Source: Ostreococcus lucimarinus (taxonomy: Eukaryota). From it: a DNA stretch of 64,000 nucleotides. The translations under genes and the position numbers were made by a program. The notes under the pieces were generated by a model. It ran no database searches. It was given only the letters and a program-made list of their open reading frames with translations, and was not told where the DNA came from. Location of the stretch: assembly GCA_000092065.1 (NCBI GenBank), contig CP000582.1, one strand, 5' to 3'. Of this stretch, positions 3,519 through 26,194 are shown piece after piece (position 1 is the stretch's first letter; each line of letters begins with the position of its first letter).

Positions 3519-3519
3519 T

Positions 3520-4279: not shown

Positions 4280-4445
4280 CCCCGAACGCGTTTTTTGAAC
4301 GCGCCGGGGTTTAGCGAAACGCGATGGCGCAACCGTCGCGTTCGCGCGCCCGCCAGTGCGCGGTGCGGCCGCGGCCGCCCGCGGGTGCGCGTGAGTAGTT
4401 CGAGGTGATTCCGACGCGTCGCGTCCGCACGTCGTCGCGCGCCGA

Positions 4446-8354: not shown

Positions 8355-8671
8355 ACACGGCTACAACTCGATCAGAAATACATTTTGTCACCTGTTCATG
8401 TGCCTCCGCGATGCCCGACGCGCGTGCGCGCCACGACAGCAGCGTGAAAGTGACGGGGATGCGCGACGGGCCGAGCGAGTTCAAAAAAAGGACGAAAGGG
8501 CACCGGATTCGAGGTTTTCGTCGACAGTGGGTCATGACGAGTCACAAACGTTCGACTTAAATATGTAAAATGATAGGAAAACCTTAATGCAATGGGTCAT
8601 AATAGCTGAATATATATGGTTTCTCGTCGTAATGGACAAAAGTTGCTTTCATAAAAATAAGGATGTAGTTG

Positions 8672-8789
8672 TTACTGAGAGTGGGGTTCGAACCCACGCA
8701 GTCAATGACTACCAGAAATCTCACCAGTTTTTTCGGTGAAGCTTATTCGCACTTGAGTCTGGCCCCTTAGACCACTCGGGCATCCCAGC
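8672..8789 (-). tRNA. tRNA-Leu (anticodon CAA) with a 34-nt intron 3' of position 37; long variable arm; discriminator A73
   Basis: Minus-strand read: GCTGGGA TG CCCGAGTGGTCTAAGGGG C CCAGA CTCAAG[tgcgaataagcttcaccgaaaaaactggtgagat]T TCTGG TAGTCATTGACTGC GTGGG TTCGAAC CCCAC TCTCAGT A. The D-arm is almost identical to yeast tRNA-Leu. Anticodon stem CCAGA/TCTGG and T-stem GTGGG/CCCAC pair perfectly. The acceptor stem has two G-U pairs. A T-run (TTATTTTTA) lies downstream on the minus strand. Confidence 0.75.
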
Positions 8790-8993
8790 ATGCGCAAAGT
8801 GTACAGCTCGCCGAACAAGTACTGTTGTCCCCCCCCATACTGCAGAAAAAAAGTATGGACTCTCATACATCCATGTGACTGACGCGCACGTTCTTACTCG
8901 TTCTTACTGAGTTCATCTTCGCAATGTATGGAGGCCGAAGAGTAATTATATTTTGTAGTTGAGCGCGGTTTTCTGTTCCATCAACGAATATCG

Positions 8994-10454: not shown

Positions 10455-10617
10455 CTGCGACCGGGTGCACGCGTGGATCGAAAAGCGAGCAACTGTTCAG
10501 CTGTTTTTTGCATCTTACGTTGAGGAAGGGAGGTTTCGCGGGTTCGCTTAGTTTCTTAGTCGTCTTTTCCGTCTTGTCGAAGTGCTCGACGTTAAGTAAT
10601 TTAATATATTTGACATC

Positions 10618-10637
10618 AGAAATAAATATTTATTTCT
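10618..10637. promoter_or_regulatory. 20-nt perfect palindrome agaaataaatatttatttct, 10 nt upstream of the PKS ORF start, in the divergent kinase/PKS intergenic region
   Basis: Self-reverse-complement verified by eye. Confidence 0.45.
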
Positions 10638-10646
10638 TGTGATATA

Positions 10647-13600
10647 GTGACATATGACATCGTATTACAACGTTTTACCCCCACTTCGCAAGGACCGACC
10701 ACCCCATATCCATGTGCTATAAAAGCTAACTCAAAATGGAAGCTCGTACGTCTGAAACGCTTGGCGCTCGAGCGTTTCCGATGTCCGATGTTAACGCGCC
10801 ACAAACCGGAGAGCGTTCAGAATGGTACGCCCCGAAATGAATCACGAATGAGCAATCTAGACACACGCGCTATGTCGAACCCTTACTTTCAGGTCGGGCG
10901 ATGGGACTGCACGGACGAGCTCGAGGGGTGTCAATTCTCCGCGCCACATACGTCGGTGTCAGTTCCTAATTTCGAAGAGATTCAGACCCTTCACTACACC
11001 TGCGTGTATGAAGTGGCGATCACGTGTACACAGCGGCATGATATGCATAACGATGAGTTCGCGCATGTACTTAGTTCTGTCATCGAGCTCGCAAATCGCG
11101 TTGACCTGACACGACTTAGGCAACATCACTCCATAGATAACTTTGCCACACACGTTCTCACTTTTCGGTTCATTCTGGACCTGTTGAGGCAAACTTATCA
11201 GGAATACATCAAAGGAAGCATAGAAAATAATTCGTTTGAGCATGTCGAATTTACTTTCAACAATTGCATGGATGGTACGCACGGAATGGCAACATGCTTT
11301 AAACCGAATAAAAAGCATAGTCACCTTTGTTACATTTTGGATATTTCGCAGGCAGAAAGAAGTTGCAATGGTCGTACTGATGACACAAAATGCGTGCACG
11401 ACAAAATTACTATGAACGATCGCGTTCTTTCCGCGGCTAAGATCCCAGACAACGCAGTGAATAAACAATTCAGTGCTAGTATACTCAATGATGTGTATGG
11501 TTTCGATTCAAGTCTGTTCCATATTTCTCAGTCGGAAACCCTCTGCATGGACCCACAACAACGACTATTACTTCTTGCAGCAGCAGACTTATACCTGAGT
11601 AACACACGTGTTTGTCAACACGACGACTCCTTCTGCGTGCACGTCGGTGTATCGTGGAATGACTTTGAGGAAATTCGCAGAAAGTATAGTGCAGACTTTT
11701 TCTCCACTTATGATTCGACGGGAACATCAATAAGTGTCGCATCGGGTAGAATTGCGTATTATTTTGATTTCAAAGGGTGTGCTGTGACGATTGATACGGC
11801 TTGTTCATCATCTTTGGTTGCGTTGCATCAATCCATGTACGCAGCTGGCTCGCTCCGTGAATCAAGTGCACTTGTATGTGGCATCAACTTGATTTTGACA
11901 ACCACGATGACACATCGATTTCAGCTTGCTGGAATGATGTCTTCAGAGCATCGATGTATGACATTTGATGCACGCGCGGATGGCTACGTCCGGAGTGAGG
12001 CATGCAACATCGTACTCTTACACTTCAATGGCTTCACAAAAACTCATAGGAATGTACTGCGGCATGACGTTCATATGTCATGCGTCGTCAATCAAGATGG
12101 AACATCAACTGGACTTACGGCACCTAATGGAACAGCTCAGCGGAACCTGATGAATGAGTTACTATCGGACGTTTATAACCCTTCAAAACACGTTGGTGCT
12201 AAAATACATGCCCACGGCACAGGTACGCCTCTTGGGGATCCGATAGAGGTGTTTGCTATCAATTCTGCCCTCTCGTTTTCGTCACTGTGCAGGCTGTATG
12301 TGTCAGAAAAGTCGATGCGAGGGCACACAGAACCTGCTTCAGGTCTATGCAGCACCATACTTGCTTTCGTATCAGGTGCACAGTGCAAGCTACATGGTCA
12401 ACCACATTTACAGCAGTTAAACAATCATATACTAACATCGGTTGATGAAAGTATTTTTCAGCGTTCACTGCATTCCAGTTTTCCCTTAACTTCTATGGCG
12501 AGTGTCACCACAGTAAGCTCCTTCGCGTTCCAAGGGACGAACGCAATGGCTTCACTGACATATATCGACAAATGCAGTATTAGAGTGATTCGCAACACGT
12601 CAGGTCTGAGATCTTTGGTCAAGTTGGAGACTGAATCCCCTGTAAGACTCCCGTACACATTTTCTTGCCTTAGCATCGTCAATGGGAAAATGATACAGCT
12701 AACTTCAATGATTCACGACAAAACATTGAAGCGACTTTTGGATCATCGTGTAGCTGATATGCATCTTATGCCAGCCACAGGCCATCTTGAACTTGAAAGA
12801 GAGCTCACGAAGTGCGCTCTCGTAAGGAATGAACCATATCTTCTGACAAAGATCGCATTTATGCTGCCTCTCAAGCTTGATGAAAGCAATCAACTTATCA
12901 CAGAGATGAACACACATGGTCGCTTACGCGTTGGATGTGGCTCTGGCATATCCAATTACTGGTGTAGTACTGCACGACTTCAAATACCAGTAGGACGTGC
13001 CTGGTGCACGGACCGTACTTTTTATCTGACTAGTAAACTCGTTTCTCGGCGTTTCAAAGGTGCGACCGCAACAATAGCAGGGACGACGCCAATTCTCGAT
13101 TCACAAAATGTCGTGAATCCGTGTATCCAGGATGCGAGTCTACAATGCTCTGCATACGTCTTGAACACGTCAGCTTTCGCATCTGATACAACCTACATGG
13201 ACTGCGTATCGTTACTTAAGCTACCAACAACAATTCAAGACGTCATAGTTGTTAATCAGACAGGAAAAATACTTGTTAGATCGACGCATGTTGACATGTT
13301 GCAGAAGACGCAGCATGTGACTGAAAGTAATAACTCTGTCACAAGTAACTCTTCGAGTAACAATAAAACGCAGACATGGATACATCGTTTACTGTGTAAA
13401 GTATCAACCGTACGGATGAAAGCTGGCTTACGCACTCGCACATGCTTGGAACTCGCGAGATTGTTGTACCACGCGAGACAACAAAGAGTGCTGATATCAA
13501 ATATGCAAAACTTGCGTGAAGTAGGCAGTTTACATGCTCCAGAACTGATGCCCATCATGCGCGAAATGGGTCGTAAGTCAATGCAAGATATTAATTCGGC

Positions 13601-16600
13601 TAGTGCCTCTCTTTGCGCGGTTGCGCTGCTGCAGGCTTGCGGCGCTCGTGCGCGCGTTTCCGGCGCCCACGTGCGTGCAAACGACATCGTCCACGAGGAC
13701 GCTTCGGCCGCGCCCGCAGTCTGTGGATCGTGCGTGCGCGCCACCGTGCAATCTTCCGCGCAGGAACGCAGCGAGCCATTGGTGCTGAGTGTCGCGAGCG
13801 CCCCGCACACCGCGCCAGCCCGAGCGTTGCGATCGATCGCCGCCGGGGCGTCGATCGCCGGGGCGCTGTGCGTTGAGCGGCTGCTTCCGGCGTTCGGTCG
13901 CCGGACGCCCGCCGCGTCGCGCGACGGCGCGGCGACGACCACGGCGTCGCCGGCACCGAAAGTCTCGAGCGTGTTCGTGACTGGCGGTCTGGGCGCGTTG
14001 GGTCAGACTTCGGCGGCGTGGTACGCGCATCGAGGCGTTCGCCACGCCTACTTGACTGGTCGCCGCGGGCGCGGAGAGTCCCTTCTGCTGCGATGGTCGT
14101 CGCGCGGCGGTACCGACGTGAGCGCATTGCACGTGCTTCGCGTCGACGCGTGTGCGACCGACGAGGCGTCGTACGGCGGTGCGCGCGCGCACGCGCGCGT
14201 GCGCGCACACGGCGTGCTGCACGCGGGCGGCGTGCTACGCGACTCTTTGACTGCTCGCCAATCCGCGTCGGCCCATCGATACGTGTGGTCGTCCAAAGTA
14301 GTGTCCGCGCACGCATTGCTCCGCCAGTGCGTCGGCGTCGAGCGCGGCGCGCGTCACATCGCGCTGTTCTCGTCGGTGGCGGCGCTGCTGGGGAGTCCAG
14401 GGCAATGCAACTACAGCGCGGCCAACGCCGCGCTGGACGCGCGAGCCGCACACGAGTGGTGCCGCGGGTACGCGGTGCAATCCGTGCAGTGGGGCGCGTG
14501 GGACGGCGCGGGAATGGCGCTGACAAACGCGTCTGTACTCAGGAACGCGCGCACGACAGGCATCGGCGTGCTCGATCCGCAAGCCGGGCTCGGGGCCGTA
14601 CACGTCGCGCTTCAGGGCGCATCAGTGACGGGTCGCTGGCGGGCAATCCAAGGCGTCCTGGCCGTCGTCCCGTTCCAGTGGTCCGTGCTCGCGCGCGCGC
14701 AGCGCTCGCGCGCGCTGATTGCGGAGTACCGCGCGGAGTCGGCGCGGTCGAGCGCTCCAGTCGCCGTCCATCCGGGCGCCGAGGAAGACGCGGCGCGCGA
14801 TGTGTCAGATGAGAGCGTGCGGCAGATCGTGGCCTCCGCCGTGACGCGCGCGCTCGGCAGAGACGTGTCGGTGGACGCGTCGCTCATGGAAGAGGGCCTA
14901 GACTCGCTCGCGGCGGTCGAGCTCGGAGGGGCGTTACAAAAGGAAACGGGCGTGAACATGCCGGCCACGCTGGCATTTGACTACCCGACGATCACCGCGA
15001 TATCTGGGTACCTGAAGGGTGCGATGCTGGCGCGATCGCGTGCGCGCCAATCGAGCGGCGCGGCGTCCAGCGCCGCTCGCACGCGCGCCGCGAGCGGCGC
15101 GGTCGCGCATTCGCGCGACTCGATGCCAGGTATTGCATCCAACGCGCGCGAAATCTTGGGTCTTGCGCCCGTTGTTATGGCCATCAGACGGAGCGTGCGA
15201 CGACTCGACGCGGATGATCGAGAGCCAAAGCCTGCTCGACATGGCGGCTCGGCGTTGTTTTCATCGTTCGTGAGGTGCGTCATGGCAGAGCGAGCCTCTG
15301 AAGATCGCTTCGACACGCCATCGTTGGGCAGGCAGCCGAGCGCGACAGCGCGCGTGGTCTCCTTGACGAAAGCCAGAGATTTCACTACACAAGCTCTCGA
15401 CAGCATGCCGAAATGCAACGAGATTGAGCTGAGCGTCGTCAGCGCTGTGTCGAGTAAGGCATCAGGCGCGCACGATGCCGTGCGTGTGAACAACATGCGA
15501 CATGCGTGCGGCGAAGTGTGTGATCCACAAAGCTCAAAATCGCACGAGTTCGTCGCTCGGCGTCTTGTGCAGTTTGGGTACTTCATCGAGCGCAGCTTGT
15601 TTGACGGGGAGCAGTTCTCCGTAACGGCGCACGAGGCGCGGTTGATGGACCCGCAGCAGCGCGTGCTCCTGGAGAACGCGCTCGCCGCGACGAGTGCGAC
15701 GCCGCACAGCGCGCCGAAGCCAGCCACAGCCGTGTCCGTCGGCGCTTGGACGTCTCAGTACGCAGACATGTGCCGCGTGTACGAGCCAACGCCGGGGCCG
15801 TACTCTGGCGTTGCTTCCGCCTTGAGCGTGCTGTGCGGTCGCGTATCGTACACGTTTGGTATGCGTGGCCCGTCCGTGTGTGTCGACACCGCGTGCTCCT
15901 CCTCGCTCGTGGCCGCGCATGTTGCGAGCTCTCACTTGCGCGATGGATCGTGCGAGGACGCCCTCGTCGCCGGCGTGAGCGTGAACGTCGGCATCGGCAC
16001 CTTCCTCGTGGCCACCGCCGCGAGCATGCTATCGTTCGATGGTCGGTGCAAAACCTTGGATGCCAGCGCCGACGGTTACGCCAAGGGCGAGTGCTGCGTG
16101 GTCCTGCGCGTGTCGGTGGACGGGGCGAGCGCTGGAGCGCCCAAAGCGCCCGATCTTCCAAACGCCGAGTCTCCCTCTCTCGCTCTTCTCGAACAGACCG
16201 GTGTGAACCAGGATGGACGGTCGAGCTCGCTCACCGCACCAAACGGGCCGTCGCAGCAGGCACTCGTGGCCGATGCGCTTCTCCGCTCGGGGCTGCACGG
16301 CGACGCGCTCGGCAGGCTGGAGATGCACGGCACGGGTACTTCGCTGGGAGATCCGATAGAGGTCGGCGCCGCGCTTGAGGTTCTCGCGCCGCCGACGCGC
16401 GCGGACCGGGCGCCGTCCAGGGGCCCCGCGCTCACGCTTGAGGGCGTGAAGCCACGCGCTGGCCACTGCGAACCAGGGGCTGGCGCGGTTGGGTTGCTGT
16501 TTGCGATGGCAAACTTGACGGAGCGAGCCGTCGCGTCCCTCGTCCACCTGCGCCAGCTCAACCCTCACGTCGAGGCCGCGACGCGCCGAAACGCACCGTC

Positions 16601-19600
16601 GCCGCATGCGCGCGCGCCGGTGCTCGCGCGACAAGGCATGCCGCGACCGGATGACGGCGCGTCTGAGGCTGGAGCAGCGGACGCTGCTCGAGCGCGCGTG
16701 CGGCGATCCGGCGTGAGCGGCTTCGCGTTCCAGGGCACAAACGCGCACGCAATCATGGCCCGGGGACCCGGACAGGCGACTGCGCCCGGGTACACGGGAA
16801 GCACGCACACGGCGGCGCGTGCGTGGGAGCGTCAGCGCCACTGGTGCGCGCCAGAACGGCACTGCCTCATCGAGTCCGTGCGCGCTCTGCATCCTCGCGA
16901 GGGAGACTCGAGCGCGTTGGCGCGGTCGTGCGTGCGCCTGTGTCGGTCCGCGTCGCTCGCTGGCATGCTTGATCACGCCGTCGGGCTCCGGACGCTGCTA
17001 CCAGGCACAGCGCACGTCGAGATATGTCGAGCCATGGCGGGCGCGCTGGCAGACCAGCCGCTCGCCGACATCTCGCTGTCGCACGTATCTTTTGCAGCGC
17101 CCCTCGAGCTTCGAGCGCCGACGACCGACGTGCTGTGCGACGTCACGCCGCAAGGCGTGGCCCGCGTGGGCGTGCGCGTGTCGTCGTCCTCTGCCGCCGC
17201 GCCGTTCCTCGCGGGCGCGCTCAGCCGCAGAAGCGCCTCAAGAATTACTGCGTCTCCGGCGCACCTCTCGCGAGGACCGGCGATGCCCGCGCTGGACGTG
17301 CAGCCTTGTGTTCACGGCGCGAGCTGGCTGCGCTCGTCGCAGCGACGAGGCCCGGGCGCGGAGCACCGCGTGTACGGCGACATACGCGCGCGTCAGATGT
17401 CCACGCTGTCGGCTGCGGCGTATCACTCGCCGCCCGCAGTGCTCGATGCCGCGCTGCACGCGCTCAGCGCGTGCGCGCCGCCGCCGGGTAGCGATGCGAC
17501 AGAAGAGAGCCCGCACGTCCCGGCCACGATCGGCGGCGTCCGCACGCGAGGCGGGCACTCGGACATATACCGCGCCCGGTTCGCGCTCGCGACGGCTCCG
17601 CCTGAGCGCGGGGAGCGGAACGCGTCCACGCGCAGATCTCGTCACCACCTGTGGGACTGGTCGAGTCTTTCGGCGGCGCATCGAGGGTGCGTGGTGCACG
17701 CGCTGGAGTCTCGACGACTCGGTGGCGCCGCGGTCGTGCGCTCGCGAGCACAACAGCGCTCGAGGGCACCGCCGCCGCGTCGCGCGGCCGCGCCGCGTGT
17801 GCTTTATGGAGTCGGGCAACAGCGCGCGTGCGGCGCGGCGGATGGCCAGGGCGCGCGTCGACGCTCAACCCTCAACTCGCAGTGCTTTGTGGACGACGCG
17901 TCGCACCGCCGCGAGCTGATGGAGACCCACGCGTCACCATCGATCGCGCAAGGCAGCACGCGAAGCAGCACGCGCGCCTCTCTTTGCGCGGTTGCGCTGC
18001 TGCAGGCTTGCGGCGCTCGTGCGCGCGTTTCCGGCGCCCACGTGCGTGCAAACGACATCGTCCACGAGGACGCTTCGGCCGCGCCCGCAGTCTGTGGATC
18101 GTGCGTGCGCGCCACCGTGCAGTCTTCCGCGCAGGAACGCAGCGAGCCATTGGTGCTGAGTGTCGCGAGCGCCCCGCACACCGCGCCAGCCCGAGCGTTG
18201 CGATCGATCGCCGCCGGGGCGTCGATCGCCGGGGCGCTGTGCGTTGAGCGTCTGCTTCCGACGTTCGGTCGCCGGACGCCCGCCGCGTCGCGCGACGGCG
18301 CGGCGACGACCACGGCGTCGCCGGCACCGAAAGTCTCGAGCGTGTTCGTGACTGGCGGTCTGGGCGCGTTGGGTCAGACTTCGGCGGCGTGGTACGCGCA
18401 TCGAGGCGTTCGCCACGCCTACTTGACTGGTCGCCGCGGGCGCGGAGAGTCCCTTCTGCTGCGATGGTCGTCGCGCGGCGGTACCGACGTGAGCGCATTG
18501 CACGTGCTTCGCGTCGACGCGTGTGCGACCGACGAGGCGTCGTACGGCGGTGCGCGCGCGCACGCGCGCGTGCGCGCACACGGCGTGCTGCACGCGGGCG
18601 GCGTGCTACGCGACTCTTTGACTGCTCGCCAATCCGCGTCGGCCCATCGATACGTGTGGTCGTCCAAAGTAGTGTCCGCGCACGCATTGCTCCGCCAGTG
18701 CGTCGGCGTCGAGCGCGGCGCGCGTCACATCGCGCTGTTCTCGTCGGTGGCGGCGCTGCTGGGGAGTCCAGGGCAATGCAACTACAGCGCGGCCAACGCC
18801 GCGCTGGACGCGCGAGCCGCACACGAGTGGTGCCGCGGGTACGCGGTGCAATCCGTGCAGTGGGGCGCGTGGGACGGCGCGGGAATGGCGCTGACAAACG
18901 CGTCTGTACTCAGGAACGCGCGCACGACAGGCATCGGCGTGCTCGATCCGCAAGCCGGGCTCGGGGCCGTACACGTCGCGCTTCAGGGCGCATCAGTGAC
19001 GGGTCGCTGGCGGGCAATCCAAGGCGTCCTGGCCGTCGTCCCGTTCCAGTGGTCCGTGCTCGCGCGCGCGCAGCGCTCGCGCGCGCTGATTGCGGAGTAC
19101 CGCGCGGAGTCGGCGCGGTCGAGCGCTCCAGTCGCCGTCCATCCGGGCGCCGAGGAAGACGCGGCGCGCGATGTGTCAGATGAGAGCGTGCGGCAGATCG
19201 TGGCCTCCGCCGTGACGCGCGCGCTCGGCAGAGACGTGTCGGTGGACGCGTCGCTCATGGAAGAGGGCCTAGACTCGCTCGCGGCGGTCGAGCTCGGAGG
19301 GGCGTTACAAAAGGAAACGGGCGTGAACATGCCGGCCACGCTGGCATTTGACTACCCGACGATCACCGCGATATCTGGGTACCTGAAGGGTGCGATGCTG
19401 GCGCGATCGCGTGCGCGCCAATCGAGCGGCGCGGCGTCCAGCGCCGCTCGCACGCGCGCCGCGAGCGGCGCGGTCGCGCATTCGCGACGTACAACCATTA
19501 CTCAGCTCCCTCGTCTACGTCTATCATACGTTCCGCATGAAGTCAGCCGACGAACGACTCTTGGCATTAGCGGTCAATATTCTCACGAGCTTAGACACTT

Positions 19601-22600
19601 TAGCTCTGCGGGACCTTCGACCAGTAACTTTGAGGGAGTCCTCTTTGTTCGCATTCATAACTCCACCAAGCCCTTACCCGTGCATCCATATTTCATTGGC
19701 AACTTTTTGCGTTGTGACGAACTCGAGTTCGGCTTGTTTGGCGCACCGCACAGCGAATGGACTACTCTGGACGCGCGGCAGATTCTCTTGATTGAGAGTG
19801 TACACACTATCCAGCTGAACAACAGTTCAGACGTTTCATTGCGCACTCTAGAGACGACGGCTGTTCTTGTTGGAGCACAAGCGGTAGATTCAACTGACGA
19901 GCATAGCGTTGAGATACAGTACAACGCCTACTCTGGCGTTGCTTCCGCCTTGAGCGTGCTGTGCGGTCGCGTATCGTACACGTTTGGTATGCGTGGCCCG
20001 TCCGTGTGTGTCGACACCGCGTGCTCCTCCTCGCTCGTGGCCGCGCATGTTGCGAGCTCTCACTTGCGCGATGGATCGTGCGAGGACGCCCTCGTCGCCG
20101 GCGTGAGCGTGAACGTCGGCATCGGCACCTTCCTCGTGGCCACCGCCGCGAGCATGCTATCGTTCGATGGTCGGTGCAAAACCTTGGATGCCAGCGCCGA
20201 CGGTTACGCCAAGGGCGAGTGCTGCGTGGTCCTGCGCGTGTCGGTGGACGGGGCGAGCGCTGGAGCGCCCAAAGCGCCCGATCTTCCAAACGCCGAGTCT
20301 CCCTCTCTCGCTCTTCTCGAACAGACCGGTGTGAACCAGGATGGACGGTCGAGCTCGCTCACCGCACCAAACGGGCCGTCGCAGCAGGCACTCGTGGCCG
20401 ATGCGCTTCTCCGCTCGGGGCTGCACGGCGACGCGCTCGGCAGGCTGGAGATGCACGGCACGGGTACTTCGCTGGGAGATCCGATAGAGGTCGGCGCCGC
20501 GCTTGAGGTTCTCGCGCCGCCGACGCGCGCGGACCGGGCGCCGTCCAGGGGCCCCGCGCTCACGCTTGAGGGCGTGAAGCCACGCGCTGGCCACTGCGAA
20601 CCAGGGGCTGGCGCGGTTGGGTTGCTGTTTGCGATGGCAAACTTGACGGAGCGAGCCGTCGCGTCCCTCGTCCACCTGCGCCAGCTCAACCCTCACGTCG
20701 AGGCCGCGACGCGCCGAAACGCACCGTCGCCGCATGCGCGCGCGCCGGTGCTCGCGCGACAAGGCATGCCGCGACCGGATGACGGCGCGTCTGAGGCTGG
20801 AGCAGCGGACGCTGCTCGAGCGCGCGTGCGGCGATCCGGCGTGAGCGGCTTCGCGTTCCAGGGCACAAACGCGCACGCAATCATGGCCCGGGGACCCGGA
20901 CAGGCGACTGCGCCCGGGTACACGGGAAGCACGCACACGGCGGCGCGTGCGTGGGAGCGTCAGCGCCACTGGTGCGCGCCAGAACGGCACTGCCTCATCG
21001 AGTCCGTGCGCGCTCTTCATCCTCGCGAGGGAGACTCGAGCGCGTTGGCGCGGTCGTGCGTGCGCCTGTGTCGGTCCGCGTCGCTCGCTGGCATGCTTGA
21101 TCACGCCATCGGGCTCCGGACGCTACTACCAGGCACAGCGCACGTCGAGATATGTCGAGCCATGGCGGGCGCGCTGGCAGACCAGCCGCTCGCCGACATC
21201 TCGCTGTCGCACGTATCTTTTGCAGCGCCCCTCGAGCTTCGAGCGCCGACGACCGACGTGCTGTGCGACGTCACGCCGCAAGGCGTGGCCCGCGTGGGCG
21301 TGCGCGTGTCGTCGTCCTCTGCCGCCGCGCCGTTCCTCGCGGGCGCGCTCAGCCGCAGAAGCGCCTCAAGAATTACTGCGTCTCCGGCGCACCTCTCGCG
21401 AGGACCGGCGATGCCCGCGCTGGACGTGCAGCCTTGTGTTCACGGCGCCATCAGACGGAGCGTGCGACGACTCGACGCGGATGATCGAGAGCCAAAGCCT
21501 GCTCGACATGGCGGCTCGGCGTTGTTTTCATCGTTCGTGAGGTGCGTCATGGCAGAGCGAGCCTCTGAAGATCGCTTCGACACGCCATCGTTGGGCAGGC
21601 AGCCGAGCGCGACAGCGCGCGTGGTCTCCTTGACGAAAGCCAGAGATTTCACTACACAAGCTCTCGACAGCATGCCGAAATGCAACGAGATTGAGCTGAG
21701 CGTCGTCAGCGCTGTGTCGAGTAAGGCATCAGGCGCGCACGATGCTGTGCGTGTGAACAACATGCGACATGCGTGCGGCGAAGTGTGTGATCCACAAAGC
21801 TCAAAATCGCACGAGTTCGTCGCTCGGCATCTTGTGCAGTTTGGGTACTTCATCGAGCGCAGCTTGTTTGACGGGGAGCAGTTCTCCGTAACGGCGCACG
21901 AGGCGCGGTTGATGGACCCGCAGCAGCGCGTGCTCCTGGAGAACGCGCTCGCCGCGACGAGCGCGACGCCGCACAGCGCGCCGAAGCCAGCCACAGCCGT
22001 GTCCGTCGGCGCTTGGACGTCTCAGTACGCAGACATGTGCCGCGTGTACGAGCCAACGCCGGGGCCGTACTCTGGCGTTGCTTCCGCCTTGAGCGTGCTG
22101 TGCGGTCGCGTATCGTACACGTTTGGTATGCGTGGCCCGTCCGTGTGTGTCGACACCGCGTGCTCCTCCTCGCTCGTGGCCGCGCATGTTGCGAGCTCTC
22201 ACTTGCGCGATGGATCGTGCGAGGACGCCCTCGTCGCCGGCGTGAGCGTGAACGTCGGCATCGGCACCTTCCTCGTGGCCACCGCCGCGAGCATGCTATC
22301 GTTCGATGGTCGGTGCAAAACCTTGGATGCCAGCGCCGACGGTTACGCCAAGGGCGAGTGCTGCGTGGTCCTGCGCGTGTCGGTGGACGGGGCGAGCGCT
22401 GGAGCGCCCAAAGCGCCCGATCTTCCAAACGCCGAGTCTCCCTCTCTCGCTCTTCTCGAACAGACCGGTGTGAACCAGGATGGACGGTCGAGCTCGCTCA
22501 CCGCACCAAACGGGCCGTCGCAGCAGGCACTCGTGGCCGATGCGCTTCTCCGCTCGGGGCTGCACGGCGACGCGCTCGGCAGGCTGGAGATGCACGGCAC

Positions 22601-24623
22601 AGGTACTTCGCTGGGAGATCCGATAGAGGTCGGCGCCGCGCTTGAGGTTCTCGCGCCGCCGACGCGCGCGGACCGGGCGCCGTCCAGGCCCCCCGCGCTC
22701 ACGCTTGAGGGCGTGAAGCCACGCGCTGGCCACTGCGAACCAGGGGCTGGCGCGGTTGGGTTGCTGTTTGCGATGGCAAACTTGACGGAGCGAGCCGTCG
22801 CGTCCCTCGTCCACCTGCGCCAGCTCAACCCTCACGTCGAGGCCGCGACGCGCCGAAACGCACCGTCGCCGCATGCGCGCGCGCCGGTGCTCGCGCGACA
22901 AGGCATGCCGCGACCGGATGACGGCGCGTCTGAGGCTGGAGCAGCGGACGCTGCTCGAGCGCGCGTGCGGCGATCCGGCGTGAGCGGCTTCGCGTTCCAG
23001 GGCACAAACGCGCACGCAATCATGGCCCGGGGACCCGGACAGGCGACTGCGCCCGGGTACACGGGAAGCACGCACACGGCGGCGCGTGCGTGGGAGCGTC
23101 AGCGCCACTGGTGCGCGCCAGAACGGCACTGCCTCATCGAGTCCGTGCGCGCTCTTCATCCTCGCGAGGGAGACTCGAGCGCGTTGGCGCGGTCGTGCGT
23201 GCGCCTGTGTCGGTCCGCGTCGCTCGCTGGCATGCTTGATCACGCCATCGGGCTCCGGACGCTACTACCAGGCACAGCGCACGTCGAGATATGTCGAGCC
23301 ATGGCGGGCGCGCTGGCAGACCAGCCGCTCGCCGACATCTCGCTGTCGCACGTATCTTTTGCAGCGCCCCTCGAGCTTCGAGCGCCGACGACCGACGTGC
23401 TGTGCGACGTCACGCCGCAAGGCGTGGCCCGCGTGGGCGTGCGCGTGTCGTCGTCCTCTGCCGCCGCGCCGTTCCTCGCGGGCGCGCTCAGCCGCAGAAG
23501 CGCCTCAAGAATTACTGCGTCTCCGGCGCACCTCTCGCGAGGACCGGCGATGCCCGCGCTGGACGTGCAGCCTTGTGTTCACGGCGCGAGCTGGCTGCGC
23601 TCGTCGCAGCGACGAGGCCCGGGCGCGGAGCACCGCGTGTACGGCGACATACGCGCGCGTCAGATGTCCACGCTGTCGGCTGCGGCGTATCACTCGCCGC
23701 CCGCAGTGCTCGATGCCGCGCTGCACGCGCTCAGCGCGTGCGCGCCGCCGCCGGGTAGCGATGCGACAGAAGAGAGCCCGCACGTCCCGGCCACGATCGG
23801 CGGCGTCCGCACGCGAGGCGGGCACTCGGACATGTACCGCGCCCGGTTCGCGCTCGCGACGGCTCCGCCTGAGCGCGGGGAGCGGAACGCGTCCACGCGC
23901 AGATCTCGTCACCACCTGTGGGACTGGTCGAGTCTTTCGGCGGCGCATCGAGGGTGCGTGGTGCACGCGCTGGAGTCTCGACGACTCGGTGGCCTCACGA
24001 CGAATTCATTTTATCATAGCTTTACGTCTACGCAGGCATATAAGTTGGCTCATATTCCACGGCCAGACATCCTATCGCAGTCTTTCACTTCAATGAAGAC
24101 TATAAATGCTGTCGACAAAGCTAGCAGCACATTTACAGAACGCAGTAGTGATGCGATGGAAATTGTTAACGCCGTGCAACGCGAGATTTTGGAAATTTTA
24201 TCAACATTAACGACCAGTCCTGTAAGTTTAGATGATACACTTGCGAGCCACGGATTGGACTCACTGGGCATTGCATATTTTTTTATTCAAGTTGGCAAAC
24301 GGTTCAATGTTGAAGTGACTGTTGACAGTCTTGGCACGAACACCACAGTCAGTAGTATAGTGCATCAGATATCACAGATGCTTAGTGCAAGGGTGATTTT
24401 CCTACACACCAAGGACCTGGTGCGCGAGCGAAAAGCCGACAGCTCCTCAAGAAGAGGAAGGAGCACTGCGATCACATCGATGGTGTCTGCATACCGTCGA
24501 CACTTGCAGTCAACTGAATTCGAGCCCAAAGCCTGTTTTGCAAGAGGCGTACTTGCTTGCGCAATATTTACTATATTTATCATTGCGTACGGATATCACG
24601 CACACAGATTCGACATGTTTTAG
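10647..24623 (+). CDS. Type I modular polyketide synthase, AT-less (trans-AT-like); domain order KS-DH-[KR-ACP-KS-DH]x2-KS-DH-ACP with a C-terminal hydrophobic tail; 4658 aa, single intronless ORF
   Basis: KS motifs: EAxxMDPQQRLLLE-like CMDPQQRLLLL and RLMDPQQRVLLE; active-site DTACSSSLVALH / DTACSSSLVAAH; HGTGTPLGDPIE / HGTGTSLGDPIE; FQGTNAH. DH motifs: LLDHRVADMHLMPATGHLE and LDHAVGLRTLLPGTAHVE plus DAALHAL. KR motifs: VFVTGGLGALG (NADPH site) and SPGQCNYSAANAALD. ACP motifs: EEGLDSLAAVEL and terminal ASHGLDSLGIAYF. No GHSxG acyltransferase motif and no ER anywhere. The true start Met may be internal (for example MSNLDTRAMSNPYF). Confidence 0.85.
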   Translation: MTYDIVLQRFTPTSQGPTTPYPCAIKANSKWKLVRLKRLALERFRCPMLTRHKPESVQNGTPRNESRMSNLDTRAMSNPYFQVGRWDCTDELEGCQFSAPHTSVSVPNFEEIQTLHYTCVYEVAITCTQRHDMHNDEFAHVLSSVIELANRVDLTRLRQHHSIDNFATHVLTFRFILDLLRQTYQEYIKGSIENNSFEHVEFTFNNCMDGTHGMATCFKPNKKHSHLCYILDISQAERSCNGRTDDTKCVHDKITMNDRVLSAAKIPDNAVNKQFSASILNDVYGFDSSLFHISQSETLCMDPQQRLLLLAAADLYLSNTRVCQHDDSFCVHVGVSWNDFEEIRRKYSADFFSTYDSTGTSISVASGRIAYYFDFKGCAVTIDTACSSSLVALHQSMYAAGSLRESSALVCGINLILTTTMTHRFQLAGMMSSEHRCMTFDARADGYVRSEACNIVLLHFNGFTKTHRNVLRHDVHMSCVVNQDGTSTGLTAPNGTAQRNLMNELLSDVYNPSKHVGAKIHAHGTGTPLGDPIEVFAINSALSFSSLCRLYVSEKSMRGHTEPASGLCSTILAFVSGAQCKLHGQPHLQQLNNHILTSVDESIFQRSLHSSFPLTSMASVTTVSSFAFQGTNAMASLTYIDKCSIRVIRNTSGLRSLVKLETESPVRLPYTFSCLSIVNGKMIQLTSMIHDKTLKRLLDHRVADMHLMPATGHLELERELTKCALVRNEPYLLTKIAFMLPLKLDESNQLITEMNTHGRLRVGCGSGISNYWCSTARLQIPVGRAWCTDRTFYLTSKLVSRRFKGATATIAGTTPILDSQNVVNPCIQDASLQCSAYVLNTSAFASDTTYMDCVSLLKLPTTIQDVIVVNQTGKILVRSTHVDMLQKTQHVTESNNSVTSNSSSNNKTQTWIHRLLCKVSTVRMKAGLRTRTCLELARLLYHARQQRVLISNMQNLREVGSLHAPELMPIMREMGRKSMQDINSASASLCAVALLQACGARARVSGAHVRANDIVHEDASAAPAVCGSCVRATVQSSAQERSEPLVLSVASAPHTAPARALRSIAAGASIAGALCVERLLPAFGRRTPAASRDGAATTTASPAPKVSSVFVTGGLGALGQTSAAWYAHRGVRHAYLTGRRGRGESLLLRWSSRGGTDVSALHVLRVDACATDEASYGGARAHARVRAHGVLHAGGVLRDSLTARQSASAHRYVWSSKVVSAHALLRQCVGVERGARHIALFSSVAALLGSPGQCNYSAANAALDARAAHEWCRGYAVQSVQWGAWDGAGMALTNASVLRNARTTGIGVLDPQAGLGAVHVALQGASVTGRWRAIQGVLAVVPFQWSVLARAQRSRALIAEYRAESARSSAPVAVHPGAEEDAARDVSDESVRQIVASAVTRALGRDVSVDASLMEEGLDSLAAVELGGALQKETGVNMPATLAFDYPTITAISGYLKGAMLARSRARQSSGAASSAARTRAASGAVAHSRDSMPGIASNAREILGLAPVVMAIRRSVRRLDADDREPKPARHGGSALFSSFVRCVMAERASEDRFDTPSLGRQPSATARVVSLTKARDFTTQALDSMPKCNEIELSVVSAVSSKASGAHDAVRVNNMRHACGEVCDPQSSKSHEFVARRLVQFGYFIERSLFDGEQFSVTAHEARLMDPQQRVLLENALAATSATPHSAPKPATAVSVGAWTSQYADMCRVYEPTPGPYSGVASALSVLCGRVSYTFGMRGPSVCVDTACSSSLVAAHVASSHLRDGSCEDALVAGVSVNVGIGTFLVATAASMLSFDGRCKTLDASADGYAKGECCVVLRVSVDGASAGAPKAPDLPNAESPSLALLEQTGVNQDGRSSSLTAPNGPSQQALVADALLRSGLHGDALGRLEMHGTGTSLGDPIEVGAALEVLAPPTRADRAPSRGPALTLEGVKPRAGHCEPGAGAVGLLFAMANLTERAVASLVHLRQLNPHVEAATRRNAPSPHARAPVLARQGMPRPDDGASEAGAADAARARVRRSGVSGFAFQGTNAHAIMARGPGQATAPGYTGSTHTAARAWERQRHWCAPERHCLIESVRALHPREGDSSALARSCVRLCRSASLAGMLDHAVGLRTLLPGTAHVEICRAMAGALADQPLADISLSHVSFAAPLELRAPTTDVLCDVTPQGVARVGVRVSSSSAAAPFLAGALSRRSASRITASPAHLSRGPAMPALDVQPCVHGASWLRSSQRRGPGAEHRVYGDIRARQMSTLSAAAYHSPPAVLDAALHALSACAPPPGSDATEESPHVPATIGGVRTRGGHSDIYRARFALATAPPERGERNASTRRSRHHLWDWSSLSAAHRGCVVHALESRRLGGAAVVRSRAQQRSRAPPPRRAAAPRVLYGVGQQRACGAADGQGARRRSTLNSQCFVDDASHRRELMETHASPSIAQGSTRSSTRASLCAVALLQACGARARVSGAHVRANDIVHEDASAAPAVCGSCVRATVQSSAQERSEPLVLSVASAPHTAPARALRSIAAGASIAGALCVERLLPTFGRRTPAASRDGAATTTASPAPKVSSVFVTGGLGALGQTSAAWYAHRGVRHAYLTGRRGRGESLLLRWSSRGGTDVSALHVLRVDACATDEASYGGARAHARVRAHGVLHAGGVLRDSLTARQSASAHRYVWSSKVVSAHALLRQCVGVERGARHIALFSSVAALLGSPGQCNYSAANAALDARAAHEWCRGYAVQSVQWGAWDGAGMALTNASVLRNARTTGIGVLDPQAGLGAVHVALQGASVTGRWRAIQGVLAVVPFQWSVLARAQRSRALIAEYRAESARSSAPVAVHPGAEEDAARDVSDESVRQIVASAVTRALGRDVSVDASLMEEGLDSLAAVELGGALQKETGVNMPATLAFDYPTITAISGYLKGAMLARSRARQSSGAASSAARTRAASGAVAHSRRTTITQLPRLRLSYVPHEVSRRTTLGISGQYSHELRHFSSAGPSTSNFEGVLFVRIHNSTKPLPVHPYFIGNFLRCDELEFGLFGAPHSEWTTLDARQILLIESVHTIQLNNSSDVSLRTLETTAVLVGAQAVDSTDEHSVEIQYNAYSGVASALSVLCGRVSYTFGMRGPSVCVDTACSSSLVAAHVASSHLRDGSCEDALVAGVSVNVGIGTFLVATAASMLSFDGRCKTLDASADGYAKGECCVVLRVSVDGASAGAPKAPDLPNAESPSLALLEQTGVNQDGRSSSLTAPNGPSQQALVADALLRSGLHGDALGRLEMHGTGTSLGDPIEVGAALEVLAPPTRADRAPSRGPALTLEGVKPRAGHCEPGAGAVGLLFAMANLTERAVASLVHLRQLNPHVEAATRRNAPSPHARAPVLARQGMPRPDDGASEAGAADAARARVRRSGVSGFAFQGTNAHAIMARGPGQATAPGYTGSTHTAARAWERQRHWCAPERHCLIESVRALHPREGDSSALARSCVRLCRSASLAGMLDHAIGLRTLLPGTAHVEICRAMAGALADQPLADISLSHVSFAAPLELRAPTTDVLCDVTPQGVARVGVRVSSSSAAAPFLAGALSRRSASRITASPAHLSRGPAMPALDVQPCVHGAIRRSVRRLDADDREPKPARHGGSALFSSFVRCVMAERASEDRFDTPSLGRQPSATARVVSLTKARDFTTQALDSMPKCNEIELSVVSAVSSKASGAHDAVRVNNMRHACGEVCDPQSSKSHEFVARHLVQFGYFIERSLFDGEQFSVTAHEARLMDPQQRVLLENALAATSATPHSAPKPATAVSVGAWTSQYADMCRVYEPTPGPYSGVASALSVLCGRVSYTFGMRGPSVCVDTACSSSLVAAHVASSHLRDGSCEDALVAGVSVNVGIGTFLVATAASMLSFDGRCKTLDASADGYAKGECCVVLRVSVDGASAGAPKAPDLPNAESPSLALLEQTGVNQDGRSSSLTAPNGPSQQALVADALLRSGLHGDALGRLEMHGTGTSLGDPIEVGAALEVLAPPTRADRAPSRPPALTLEGVKPRAGHCEPGAGAVGLLFAMANLTERAVASLVHLRQLNPHVEAATRRNAPSPHARAPVLARQGMPRPDDGASEAGAADAARARVRRSGVSGFAFQGTNAHAIMARGPGQATAPGYTGSTHTAARAWERQRHWCAPERHCLIESVRALHPREGDSSALARSCVRLCRSASLAGMLDHAIGLRTLLPGTAHVEICRAMAGALADQPLADISLSHVSFAAPLELRAPTTDVLCDVTPQGVARVGVRVSSSSAAAPFLAGALSRRSASRITASPAHLSRGPAMPALDVQPCVHGASWLRSSQRRGPGAEHRVYGDIRARQMSTLSAAAYHSPPAVLDAALHALSACAPPPGSDATEESPHVPATIGGVRTRGGHSDMYRARFALATAPPERGERNASTRRSRHHLWDWSSLSAAHRGCVVHALESRRLGGLTTNSFYHSFTSTQAYKLAHIPRPDILSQSFTSMKTINAVDKASSTFTERSSDAMEIVNAVQREILEILSTLTTSPVSLDDTLASHGLDSLGIAYFFIQVGKRFNVEVTVDSLGTNTTVSSIVHQISQMLSARVIFLHTKDLVRERKADSSSRRGRSTAITSMVSAYRRHLQSTEFEPKACFARGVLACAIFTIFIIAYGYHAHRFDMF
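13605..23993. repeat. 10.4-kb block of near-identical tandem segmental duplications inside the PKS ORF. Segments: a 13605-15115 = 17976-19486 (KR-ACP). b2 15182-15800 = 21449-22067 (linker plus KS N-terminus). c 15801-17320 = 19929-21448 = 22068-23587 (KS core plus DH N-half). d 17321-17975, partial copy 23588-23993. Order is a-b-c-d-a-b'-c-b2-c-d'.
   Basis: The offsets 4371, 4128 and 6267 nt were verified at several junctions. Copies differ by only a few SNPs (for example caatcttcc/cagtcttcc, gagcggctg/gagcgtctg, RRLVQ/RHLVQ, SRGP/SRPP). The block is about 70% GC against about 47% in the flanks. Confidence 0.85.
19487..19928 (+). repeat. Divergent low-GC paralogue (b') of the linker / KS-N-terminus segment, replacing the 685-nt GC-rich b segment in module copy 2
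   Basis: It encodes FGLFGAPHSEWTTLDARQILLIESVHTIQ...TAVLVGAQAVDSTDEHSVEIQYNAYSGVAS. This aligns with FSVTAHEARLMDPQQRVLLENALAATSA...TAVSVGAWTSQYADMCRVYEPTPGPYSGVAS of the other copies. Nucleotide composition resembles the host flanks. Confidence 0.7.
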
Positions 24624-24795: not shown

Positions 24796-25677
24796 GTGAT
24801 GCCGAGGCGCACATCATTAGCCAACGGCAGCTCGCTGTACGACGGGTTGCGATTTAAGTCGAGCGGGTTCAAGCGTTCGGGCAGGAAAGTGAACTTTTAC
24901 ACGTGTAGTACGATCGACGACTCGGACAGAAACGCGTCCTCGACGGGGAGATGCACGTTCGAGGCGGAGATCCGGCACAGAGCCGCGACGGACGAGTACT
25001 TCATCACCAAGTACGTCGGCCATTCGTTCGGTTGCACCGCGCTCTCGCCCCACATCGACGGGGAAACGCGAGCCGAGCTCGTCGATGACGTGCAAATGCA
25101 AGCCATATCCCTGCAACGAGGTCGCGTCGCTGTACAATCGTGTATCGATTACGTGTTCCGGCGCTACTCGTACGTCGTCGACGAAGCGCCGGCTGCGTCG
25201 TTACTTCAGTGCGTGCGGCGACGAAGTTCGGTGGCCACTCGCAGAGAGGCTCTTAAGCGCTTCGCTCAGACGAAAGTGCGATCGAAATTACAGGGCGAAC
25301 TCATGACCTGCATCGCGCACTCGCGCCAAGTCATAACCTCGTTGAGCCTGACCGAACGCCCGACGTCACGCGACATTCGAAAGTATTATCATGTGTTCGG
25401 ATTGCTGCACACGCACTGCAGTCGTCTTCCGGAGTTCGACTCGCTCGCAACCGTATGGATGGCCGCAGATACGACTAGCAGCGCCGCGCTCATTCATGCG
25501 CTCGAGCTCGGCATCAAAAAATTCGACAACGCACTGCGCACCGTTCGCCCCGCGACTGCCTCACAAACTGAAGCCTTGCACAACGCTCACGGCCATCTTC
25601 CTCCTTACGATCTCAGTGAAGCCGAGGCGTTGACGGCTCTTCGTAGTATAGCGCGTTCTGCCCAAACACGTTCGTAG
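24796..25677 (+). CDS. Hypothetical protein (293 aa), no recognisable domain; immediately downstream of the PKS
   Basis: Long ORF with host-like composition, preceded by the 23-nt tandem repeat. I could not recognise any motif. Confidence 0.35.
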   Translation: MMPRRTSLANGSSLYDGLRFKSSGFKRSGRKVNFYTCSTIDDSDRNASSTGRCTFEAEIRHRAATDEYFITKYVGHSFGCTALSPHIDGETRAELVDDVQMQAISLQRGRVAVQSCIDYVFRRYSYVVDEAPAASLLQCVRRRSSVATRREALKRFAQTKVRSKLQGELMTCIAHSRQVITSLSLTERPTSRDIRKYYHVFGLLHTHCSRLPEFDSLATVWMAADTTSSAALIHALELGIKKFDNALRTVRPATASQTEALHNAHGHLPPYDLSEAEALTALRSIARSAQTRS

Positions 25678-26194
25678 CGAAGCTTCTTTGTTAAAGATGT
25701 CAAACATCGTTAACTATGTCATCTTTCCATAGTTTAAACCTCGTTTGCCTTTTTCACCATCAAGCGAAGCGAACCTATTGGATTTCACAACCCTCGTTGA
25801 CGTGTCACTTGAGGTCCAGCTCAGCTCGCCGTCATCGTCAGGACGCGGAAGAATCACACTGCGTTGCGCGCTGACCGGACTTCAAGAGCAAGAACAAAAT
25901 TGGTCGCTAATCCACAGCCAGTGCAACGATAGCAGTACAGTTCCTCTCTTCCGACAGCTCTGGTGTGTTTCCCAGCTCATGCCTGGCTCAGAGCCGCCGC
26001 CCACCATGGACCGGACGGACATAGCCACGTCTAGAAAACTCAGCCCGGAAGGCACGAGTCAAGGCGACCGTGAAATGATGAGCTGGAGCCTTGCTTACGC
26101 GAGCAGGATACTACATACTCGAAAAAAATCGAAAGGGAAGCGCAAGTTCACATTTCAAGTGCGTGCTTTTATTACTTCATATTTTTTTCCTTAA

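Follow-up and report, generated by a model that had tools for sequence, protein, structure and literature searches.

The 64,000-nt stretch of DNA analyzed here (the window) belongs to contig CP000582.1 of the Ostreococcus lucimarinus CCE9901 genome assembly (GCA_000092065.1), and we take the record that carries its genes to be chromosome 2 of this alga. It contains a gene for a polyketide synthase (PKS) in which a 4.1-kb cassette, one module long, is repeated in tandem with almost no sequence change. The original prediction, made before any comparison with other genomes, read this near identity as a “very recent” expansion. The contigs that we compared do not bear this out: the same breakpoints and a homologous spacer are found in a sister lineage (contig L010) in which fourfold degenerate sites are saturated. 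The duplication is probably ancient, its copies being kept alike by concerted evolution. The explanation that we favor, and consider probable as a whole, is that of an old duplication that is homogenized, variable in copy number, and linked to G+C content (GC). With 70% GC against a background of 45%, the repeat block forms an island, a feature that the original prediction lacked.

The repeats were mapped by a self-BLAST comparison of the window and a repeat search, and all matches proved to be ungapped. Positions 13605 to 15115 recur at 17976 to 19486 (1,511 nt, 3 mismatches, offset 4,371), positions 15801 to 17320 recur at both 19929 to 21448 and 22068 to 23587 (1,520 nt, 3 mismatches per adjacent pair, offsets 4,128 and 2,139), and positions 15180 to 17726 recur at 21447 to 23993 (2,547 nt, 10 mismatches, offset 6,267). 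Identities range from 99.6 to 99.8% and all offsets are multiples of 3; because the identity extends over kilobases, the repeats cannot be due to chance. This agrees with the near-identical tandem repeats inside the coding sequence, the three copies of segment c and two each of a, b, and d, and the offsets of 4,371, 4,128, and 6,267 nt given in the original prediction. The amino acid differences listed there (SRGP/SRPP, DHAV/DHAI, SDIY/SDMY, and RRLV/RHLV) were all found, together with an additional one, LPAF/LPTF. The linker that had been described as a separate 619-nt piece does occur twice, but it measures 621 nt and is part of a single continuous 2,547-nt repeat (b, c, and d). The junctions are in frame, as predicted, whereas the microhomology attributed to them is demonstrable at only one, between c2 and b3, as a 2-nt overlap (GC) that is expected by chance in about 1/16 of cases; the other junctions have no identifiable donor.

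As judged from the sequence, the core unit of the array is a cassette, X, with the domain order ketoreductase (KR), acyl carrier protein (ACP), ketosynthase (KS), and dehydratase (DH), which stands in tandem around a 249-nt spacer, g2. In a contig with a single cassette (L001, see below), X consists of the segments a-g1-b-c-d and is 4,122 nt long. The segments of the CCE9901 gene, which lacks an acyltransferase (AT) domain, are as follows (GC3 stands for GC at third codon positions; all are on the + strand):

10788 to 24623, +, PKS coding sequence with its likely start, KS0-(DH0)-KR-ACP-KS-DH-KR-ACP-KS(chimeric)-DH(N-half)-KS-DH-ACP, AT-less
10788 to 13604, +, U, unique 5' part (45% GC, GC3 0.44), with KS0 at amino acids 266 to 576 and a weak DH-like match
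13605 to 15115, +, a1, KR-ACP of X copy 1 (71% GC, GC3 0.80), left edge marked by a GC step from 0.44 to 0.69
15116 to 15179, +, g1, 64-nt piece of the ACP-KS linker, single in CCE9901 and present in both units of wild two-cassette contigs
15180 to 15800, +, b1, ACP-KS linker and KS N terminus (62% GC), orthologous to the linker of the sister lineage
15801 to 17320, +, c1, KS core (Cys/His/His motifs) and DH N-half
17321 to 17726, +, d1, DH C-half (DAALH), right end of X copy 1
17727 to 17975, +, g2, 249-nt intercassette spacer (73% GC), unique in the window and homologous to the spacer of the sister lineage
17976 to 19486, +, a2, KR-ACP copy 2, differing from a1 at 3 sites, none of them beyond nt 286
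19487 to 19928, +, g3, orphan 442-nt linker and KS N terminus (50% GC, GC3 0.49), open in frame, seen only in the CCE9901 reference
19929 to 21448, +, c2, third KS core and DH N-half, mosaic, with no DH C-half, KR, or ACP after it
21447 to 22067, +, b3, second copy of b, overlapping the end of c2 by 2 nt (GC), a junction unique to the CCE9901 reference
22068 to 23587, +, c3, KS core and DH N-half, within the most diverged copy
23588 to 23993, +, d3, DH C-half, right end of the GC island, with a GC drop from 0.71 to 0.43 at 23993/23994
23994 to 24623, +, T, unique 3' part (44% GC), terminal ACP, 5.4% diverged in contig L008 from 4 nt past the boundary

All these repeats are held in an open reading frame (ORF) that is open at 10647 to 24623 (+ strand, 4,658 aa); independent contigs place its likely start codon at Met48 (position 10788), which would give a protein of 4,611 aa. 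Pfam detects four KS domains, whose catalytic motifs are legible in the translation (DTACSSS for the Cys, HGTGT for the His, and RAGHCE or MRGHTE for the second His), and three PP-binding matches, with the phosphopantetheine motif GLDSL in a1, a2, and T. In scans run on separate pieces, a corresponds to KR-ACP, b plus c to KS and the N-half of DH, d to the C-half of DH with its DAALH motif, U to KS0 and a weak DH-like match, and T to the terminal ACP. The truncation of DH in the middle copy, which lacks d, was correctly predicted; c2 also lacks KR and ACP. No Acyl_transf_1 match was found by Pfam across the 4,658-aa ORF, an AT domain was seen in 0 of the 16 neighboring ORFs of at least 290 aa in the window, and the same scan of neighboring ORFs revealed neither an AT gene nor a biosynthetic cluster in the window. 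Free-standing ATs have been reported in chlorophytes (Shelest et al. 2015, PMC4661987). By the evidence of its translation, the gene is an intronless, AT-less (trans-AT-type) type I PKS. In KS enzymes, the catalytic histidines sit in the HGTGT and ..GH.. motifs; KS0 contains both, and the idea that it is inactive, based on GTNAM in place of GTNAH, was withdrawn.

The age of the duplication follows from an uncultured Ostreococcus-like lineage in which the gene order kinase-PKS-UTP20-AP mu is syntenic with that of O. lucimarinus. Three of its contigs (L002, L003, and L009) encode a one-cassette PKS. A fourth, L010, which is 99.6 to 99.8% identical to L002, has a 4,176-nt direct repeat (99.83% identity, offset 4,377) around a 201-nt spacer, in an intact ORF of 3,981 codons with the architecture KS0-[KR-ACP-KS-DH]-spacer-[KR-ACP-KS-DH]-ACP. 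The unit breakpoints in O. lucimarinus and in L010 agree within 1 to 3 codons: the left one immediately precedes ASLCAVALLQ in the former and ACLHATALLQ in the latter, and the right one follows ESRRLGG and ESRRLG, respectively. Both spacers start with AA after ESRRLG(G) and share a collinear block around PRVLY. Their BLOSUM62 local alignment score is 50, compared with 26.6 +/- 5.1 for shuffled sequences, 3 of 2,000 of which reach it; the orthologous ends of U, used as a positive control, score 47 (2/2000 shuffles). At fourfold sites of identical residues, identity amounts to 35% for the island and 21% for the flanks, with about 26% expected by chance, so the two lineages are saturated at synonymous sites. 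Amino acid identity to O. lucimarinus is 58 to 63% for the sister lineage and 69 to 74% for Ostreococcus tauri. Because the breakpoints and a homologous spacer are common to lineages that have diverged to this extent, the duplication is ancestral; the alignments thus show the two-cassette arrangement U-X-spacer-X-T to be older than the split between O. lucimarinus and the sister lineage. A cassette-free allele (U-T) was also considered, but the 1,150-aa protein that prompted this idea is a fragment of the two-cassette L010. The sister lineage also has a GenBank record, MBI20455 to MBI20462, filed under a metagenome-assembled genome of a “Euryarchaeota archaeon”; it is a eukaryotic contig, with the PKS ortholog MBI20461.1, and its presence there is bin contamination.

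Given that the duplication is ancestral, the near identity of the copies points to continuing homogenization. Cassette copies are 99.5 to 100% identical within lineages, compared with 61 to 65% between them, as is classically seen in concerted evolution. Segment c2 is a mosaic, with alleles of c1 in its 5' part and alleles of c3 in its 3' part, in line with the earlier suggestion that homologous exchange (gene conversion or unequal crossing-over) shapes the region. The b3-c3 copy carries 8 private alleles (six in c3 and two in b3), and three c3 alleles are common to c2. The positions of the differences are also telling. In L010, 7/7 differences between the copies fall in the first 145 nt of the unit (P = 6e-11), so that its edge is 4.8% diverged and its interior identical; in CCE9901, 3/3 differences between a1 and a2 are confined to the first 286 nt (P = 0.007). 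Such clustering at the edges is explained by conversion tracts seldom reaching the end of the homology. The copies have thus been kept alike in each lineage through repeated homologous exchange, by gene conversion or unequal crossing-over. The same exchanges would also delete cassettes, and since deletion cannot regenerate the spacer, the one-cassette alleles are best seen as deletion derivatives. The differences among copies and strains include about 8 nonsynonymous and 10 synonymous ones; purifying selection on the cassette copies is suggested.

Copy number in O. lucimarinus was followed in contigs of several lengths fetched behind members of the 90%-identity cluster of the PKS protein. Contig L001 (ENA, 8.6 kb) matches the window except for the exact absence of positions 17727 to 23993 and is U-X-T with one cassette and 2,522 aa; its private single-nucleotide polymorphisms (SNPs) mark it as coming from another strain. 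The indel-rich L008 (ENA ERZ10646592 contig_16714, 53 kb), probably a long-read contig, also has one cassette, without the internal repeat. Two contigs, L004 (ENA, 25.6 kb) and L005 (JGI, 14.1 kb), have the arrangement U-X-g2-X-T (3,979 aa) with identical g2 sequences, and, being short-read contigs, indicate at least two units as a lower bound. The junction of d, g2, and a is also spanned by the 976-bp contig L007 and is present in L006 (JGI 3300047157, 360 kb). As four independent assemblies share this unique junction, the 4,371-nt duplication is real. Wild contigs with one or two cassettes are therefore found in both lineages, L002, L003, and L009 versus L010 representing the two forms in the sister lineage, and the comparison of related strains for copy number that had been proposed along with the original prediction did reveal the variation in module number that it implied. 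In short-read assemblies, the PKS locus is collapsed or broken.

Two further observations concern these strains. Among near-identical ones, X shows 4 to 7 differences, as against none in 3 to 5 kb of U and the upstream region (Fisher p = 0.014-0.04). The divergence of L008 from the window is itself a mosaic: 0.2% at positions 1 to 3000, 2.3% at 8600 to 10070, dropping to 0.03% in U and 0.24% in X and then reaching 5.4% in T and 4.3% in UTP20, with the switch on the 3' side within 4 nt of the boundary between d and T. Either U and X have recently moved between diverged haplotypes of the low-GC region BOC1, the tract ending where the homology ends, or the contig is chimeric.

The GC island lies inside a single ORF and coincides with the homogenized unit to within tens of bases. 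In adjacent 150-nt bins, GC rises from 0.44 to 0.69 at 13605 and falls from 0.71 to 0.43 at 23994; the window background is 42 to 49%. GC at the three codon positions is 0.72/0.60/0.80 in a, c, and d, compared with 0.49/0.43/0.44 in U and 0.44/0.44/0.45 in T, and the unique mid-island piece g3 has background composition (GC3 0.49). At each of the four unit edges, GC3 falls within the 150 nt nearest the boundary, and it drops to 0.46, near background, in the poorly homogenized left edge of L010. The island boundaries are identical in the sister lineage (L002 and L010), where GC at fourfold sites is 0.52 in the island and 0.39 in the flanks, compared with 0.78 and 0.40 in O. lucimarinus; a passive GC-rich relic should have decayed at saturated synonymous sites and is accordingly disfavored. 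A third Mamiellales-like lineage, L011 (ENA ERZ10645735 contig_14208, positions 4987 to 17205; background GC 36%), encodes a three-KS PKS in which only KR (99.7% identical) and KS-DH (96%) are homogenized and the two ACP-to-KS linkers are mutually unrelated. Its repeated blocks have 46.2% GC, the unique PKS parts 38.4%, and the flanks 36.2%, the linkers and KS0 being low. On another long contig, L012, GC is flat across a PKS that has no repeats.

The locus lies in the low-GC, recombination-suppressed BOC1 of O. lucimarinus CCE9901. In the literature, PKS genes of this species are located inside BOC1, the outlier region of the big outlier chromosome, which has about 40% GC in a genome of about 60% and is a recombination-suppressed candidate mating-type region; GC-biased gene conversion has been documented in O. 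tauri. In such a region, where allelic recombination is otherwise suppressed, GC-biased exchanges between cassettes would push the unit to 70% GC (GC3 0.80) and leave the unique parts of the ORF at 45%. That GC-biased gene conversion made the island GC-rich is the option to which we lean, by a small measure. The fuller statement, that the island is the sharply bounded footprint of such conversion between tandem cassettes in a recombination-less, GC-poor region, we put forward tentatively, as a proposition with slightly less than an even chance of being right.

In CCE9901, a private rearrangement would have placed g3 and an extra KS-DH(N-half) copy where other alleles have g1. Its simplest origin would be a single illegitimate join, at the 2-nt overlap, of [U-X-g2-a-g3-c] to [b-c-d-T] from another haplotype or chromatid, after which c2 and c3 would have exchanged a patch by conversion. 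The arrangement a2-g3-c2 has a natural precedent in L011, whose homogenized KS block begins within 7 codons of the start of c in CCE9901.

Several observations count against this account or parts of it, and some of them favor other explanations. With regard to composition, the GC of the spacer g2, which is single copy in two-cassette alleles, matches that of X, and ectopic conversion accounts for this only when supplemented by longer arrays or by allelic conversion. GC1 and GC2 (GC at first and second codon positions) are raised alongside GC3, so that the signal is partly one of amino acid composition, and the island protein is rich in Gly, Ala, Arg, and Pro. Young private mutations in X number 12 from G or C to A or T and 4 in the reverse direction (p = 0.038-0.055), an excess of marginal significance in small counts that may include sequencing errors.

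The island may thus have arisen in another way, X being a foreign or autosome-derived insert that was GC-rich when placed between DH0 and the terminal ACP, or its GC being kept high by selection or local chromatin, and it would coincide with the repeat unit only because the inserted cassette was later duplicated. This is consistent with the better conservation of X compared with U or T (59 to 63% versus 23 to 43%), with the complete KS-DH-ACP module that is left when X is removed, which makes an insertion history plausible, with the presence of the island in one-cassette haplotypes, and with the distinct methylation and micrococcal nuclease (MNase) profiles reported for PKS regions of BOC1. 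We nevertheless consider it unlikely, although still a serious contender. Two saturated lineages both keep raised fourfold GC within the same boundaries, even though the young mutations appear AT biased and would imply a mutational equilibrium GC of 0.37 to 0.44, equal to the background, and no GC-rich donor is closer than 54 to 60% identity. The sole never-duplicated coding piece within the island, g3, is at background GC, GC3 is lower at the poorly homogenized unit edges, and in L011 GC follows the repeated blocks rather than the domains as such. Finally, U and T would share a transcript with X, counter to selection linked to expression. Two specific sources for the GC-rich block were rejected: a bacterial or actinomycete origin, given the eukaryotic neighbors, the best relatives among Ostreococcus and chlorophyte PKSs, and Streptomyces sequences being no closer (33 to 39%), and recent copying from a GC-rich paralog, nothing above 60% identity being found outside the PKS locus.

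The second concern is the assembly itself, as the 2007 Sanger reference could have misordered or overcounted a collapsed repeat, either throughout the block or, in a weaker form, only in g3-c2 and the c-b junction; the true gene could then be U-X-g2-a-g3-c-d-T, a clean three-module PKS. Neither g3 nor the c2-b3 junction occurs in 5.8 billion clustered proteins, among 1.84 billion representative proteins in a HMMER search, or on JGI metagenome contigs. The c-b overlap of only 2 nt yields a biochemically odd ACP-less KS-DH(N-half), and one difference is GG>CC in a G/C run, of the type produced by Sanger compression. L006, whose flanks are 99.97 to 99.99% identical to CCE9901, contains the junction of d, g2, and a but lacks g3-c2. 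In the short-read contigs L004 and L005, the two units are 100% identical, as they would be if the assembler had traversed one loop twice; as this gives the same result, their identity was not used as evidence of homogenization.

For the 4,371-nt repeat, the recurrence of its junction in L004, L005, L006, and L007 refutes the assembly artifact that the original prediction had left as an alternative; for the extra g3-c2 insertion, seen in no other public assembly, that alternative retains a minor probability. Here, g3 is 442 nt of unique sequence that is open in frame (20/20000 shuffles are) and into which the Pfam KS model aligns, which argues for real DNA between a and c. The SNPs that divide the three c copies into three haplotypes are spaced 466 to 663 nt from one another, a distance covered by a single Sanger read, implying that all three copies are real, and in L011 a unit with its own divergent low-GC linker is joined to the homogenized KS core at the same point. 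L006 is itself unreliable: its breaks (at 9870/9872 and 17813) are blunt deletions of window positions 12837 to 13604 and 23443 to 24237, one of which stops precisely at the left edge of segment a and shifts the frame. These deletions probably are misjoins at nodes of the repeat graph, and L006 was set aside as a near-isogenic check of the reference. Overall, an artifact seems rather improbable, and the CCE9901-specific part (g3-c2 and the c-b junction) is likely to be correct as assembled. The suggestion that g3 is an O. tauri-type linker was rejected: g3 matches O. tauri at 28% over 106 aa, b does so at 30% over 83 aa, and L011 has no ortholog of g3.

A third explanation retains the recent date and has unequal crossing-over occur shortly before the isolation of CCE9901, the copies being alike because they are young. 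They do differ by only 0.2 to 0.4%, copy number differs among closely related wild strains, and the g3-c2 insert and the c-b junction are private to CCE9901 and perhaps truly recent. For the 4,371-nt repeat, this explanation is already largely refuted, by the matching breakpoints and homologous spacer in a lineage that is 61 to 65% identical and synonymously saturated and by the diverged edges of the L010 unit around an identical interior, which mark an old duplicate with a homogenized interior; we give it little credence. The spacer homology on which the ancestral age depends is a single alignment of about 38 residues from two lineages, and g2 shows no homology to the end of U or the start of T; the prediction of simple unequal crossing-over, that g2 is a decayed fusion of the start of T with the end of U, was rejected, as all eight comparisons were nonsignificant. 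The least probable explanation, by which the cassette doubled separately in each lineage because only in-frame joins at the DH-KR boundary give a working enzyme, would suit the position of the breakpoints in interdomain linkers where selection would tolerate joins, the frequency of module duplication in algal PKSs, and the different extent of the repeated blocks in L011, but not both breakpoints agreeing within 1 to 3 codons, nor spacers that start with the same residues and are homologous at the level of orthologous linkers.

With regard to function, the one-cassette allele is predicted to encode KS0-DH0-KR-ACP followed by KS-DH-ACP, to which the two-cassette allele would add a further KS-DH-KR-ACP module. 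X retains intact catalytic motifs; each intact extra cassette should add one elongation module, and the products of the two alleles are predicted to differ by one extension unit. CCE9901 would have, in addition, a chimeric KS (with its N terminus from g3) and half a DH without a carrier domain, and this ACP-less KS-DH(N-half) insert may be inert or disruptive.

These findings imply that near-identical algal PKS modules need not be recent: here, an old duplication has undergone continual homogenization. They also reveal that wild populations of an alga that can be cultured form a natural allele series (modules numbering one, two, or two plus a partial one), which allows the dependence of the product on module number to be tested without engineering. 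If the island is indeed a conversion footprint, one gene holds both a treated tract and its untreated control, which would also serve as a positive control for the leading hypothesis that the outlier and mating-type regions of Mamiellales are GC-poor through the loss of GC-biased conversion. Conversion alone could then raise the GC3 of coding sequence from about 0.44 to 0.80 and alter the amino acid composition of the protein. The one-/two-cassette polymorphism would have persisted, or been regenerated by deletion, across lineages and would amount to a series of polyketide chain lengths that is inherited and possibly linked to mating type.

The surroundings of the PKS gene are eukaryotic: its neighbors encode UTP20, XPG, Ndc80, an AP mu subunit, BiP/Hsp70, a cyclin, the signal recognition particle (SRP) receptor, and DXS. 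Five of the neighboring proteins are exact matches to O. lucimarinus CCE9901, all on one record of 895,087 bp. The 90%-identity protein cluster of the PKS has no NCBI-sourced member, and no homolog is named as O. lucimarinus; unlike the PKS, the neighboring genes do have GenBank proteins. The PKS gene is probably unannotated or fragmented in public annotation. Upstream, a 5.2-kb block at 3430 to 8599 (52 to 53% GC versus 45% in the background) is missing from the otherwise collinear wild haplotype L008. It contains an ORF for a DDE_Tnp_4 (PIF/Harbinger-type) transposase (4446 to 6239, + strand) and one for an XPG-like nuclease (6231 to 8354, − strand), with a 90-bp inverted repeat at 3429 to 3518 and 4192 to 4279, and looks like a strain-variable mobile insertion. 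A tRNA at 8673 to 8789 (− strand) is detected by Rfam (42 bits) but not by ARAGORN; its match spans 117 nt, and the gene probably contains an intron. Downstream, the interval between PKS and UTP20 (24796 to 25901, GC 56 to 61%) is hypervariable, with 31 mismatches in about 950 nt relative to the otherwise near-identical L004 and about 280 gap columns relative to L008; a 293-aa ORF in it (24796 to 25677) has no Pfam match. In this eukaryotic nuclear region, positions 46160 to 49006 (+ strand) encode an aconitase B of bacterial type (Aconitase_B_N plus Aconitase_2_N).

Near identity of PKS modules is known from several other systems. The mycolactone PKS, encoded on plasmid pMUM001 of Mycobacterium ulcerans, has modules of extreme nucleotide identity, ascribed to duplication and recombination, and deletions that differ from strain to strain; it is bacterial, plasmid-borne, and cis-AT and is regarded as recently evolved, whereas the O. 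lucimarinus system is eukaryotic, ancient, and GC-shifted. We know of no compositional island reported for the mycolactone genes.

Closer to the present case, Shelest et al. (2015, PMC4661987) described module duplications in chlorophyte trans-AT PKSs, such as modules 1 to 3 of OluPKS3, with KS and ACP domains 98 to 100% identical. As here, these are near-identical modules in one AT-less multimodular PKS from the same group of organisms. Those authors read the similarity at the protein level as (recent) duplication and did not mention gene conversion, concerted evolution, or GC; the duplication described here predates a deep split, is polymorphic in copy number, and coincides with a GC island. 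Valiadi et al. (bioRxiv 10.1101/2025.04.21.649811) found PKS genes in the low-GC outlier region of Mamiellales, reported intraspecific length variation with extra modules in O. tauri from long reads, and noted PKS stretches with atypical methylation and MNase signal. They proposed Mutator-like (MULE) transposons as possible drivers, without discussing conversion, tandem cassettes, or GC islands; in our window, no MULE lies in or next to the PKS gene, the nearby DDE_Tnp_4 element being 4.4 kb upstream.

GRINS (genetic repeats marked by intense nucleotide skews; Nivina et al. 2021, PMC8256042) are duplications of more than 500 bp at more than 80% identity within the same PKS in which the mean absolute GC and TA skews, measured in 150-nt windows, exceed 0.15 and are usually correlated. 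The likeness lies in long intragenic PKS repeats that are alike within a gene and far less so between homologous PKSs, in gene conversion, and in odd composition. The O. lucimarinus repeats, with 1.5 to 2.5 kb at 99.6 to 99.8%, are well within the range of the duplications, but their mean absolute GC skew is 0.064 (shuffled, 0.084) and their TA skew 0.144 (shuffled, 0.127), with r = -0.11. With both skews below 0.15 and at or near shuffled values, classification as GRINS was ruled out; the anomaly here is in G+C content, and the unit is a whole 4.1-kb module, compared with 0.3 to 1.4 kb in GRINS.

The compositional effect resembles more closely that in palindromes of the primate X chromosome (2021, PMC8981503; Galtier 2003, cited there), whose arms have 46% GC and flanks 41%. 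These, too, are duplicates of more than 99% identity kept by intrachromosomal conversion in regions of reduced recombination, with arms richer in GC than flanks and raised GC in spacers. The palindromes consist of inverted noncoding arms, whereas the cassettes are direct tandem repeats in coding sequence, and the effect is about 5 times larger here (25 versus about 5 GC points). What is new in the present case is the concerted evolution of tandem PKS modules that is eukaryotic, ancient, polymorphic in at least two lineages, and marked by an island of G+C content rather than by skew.

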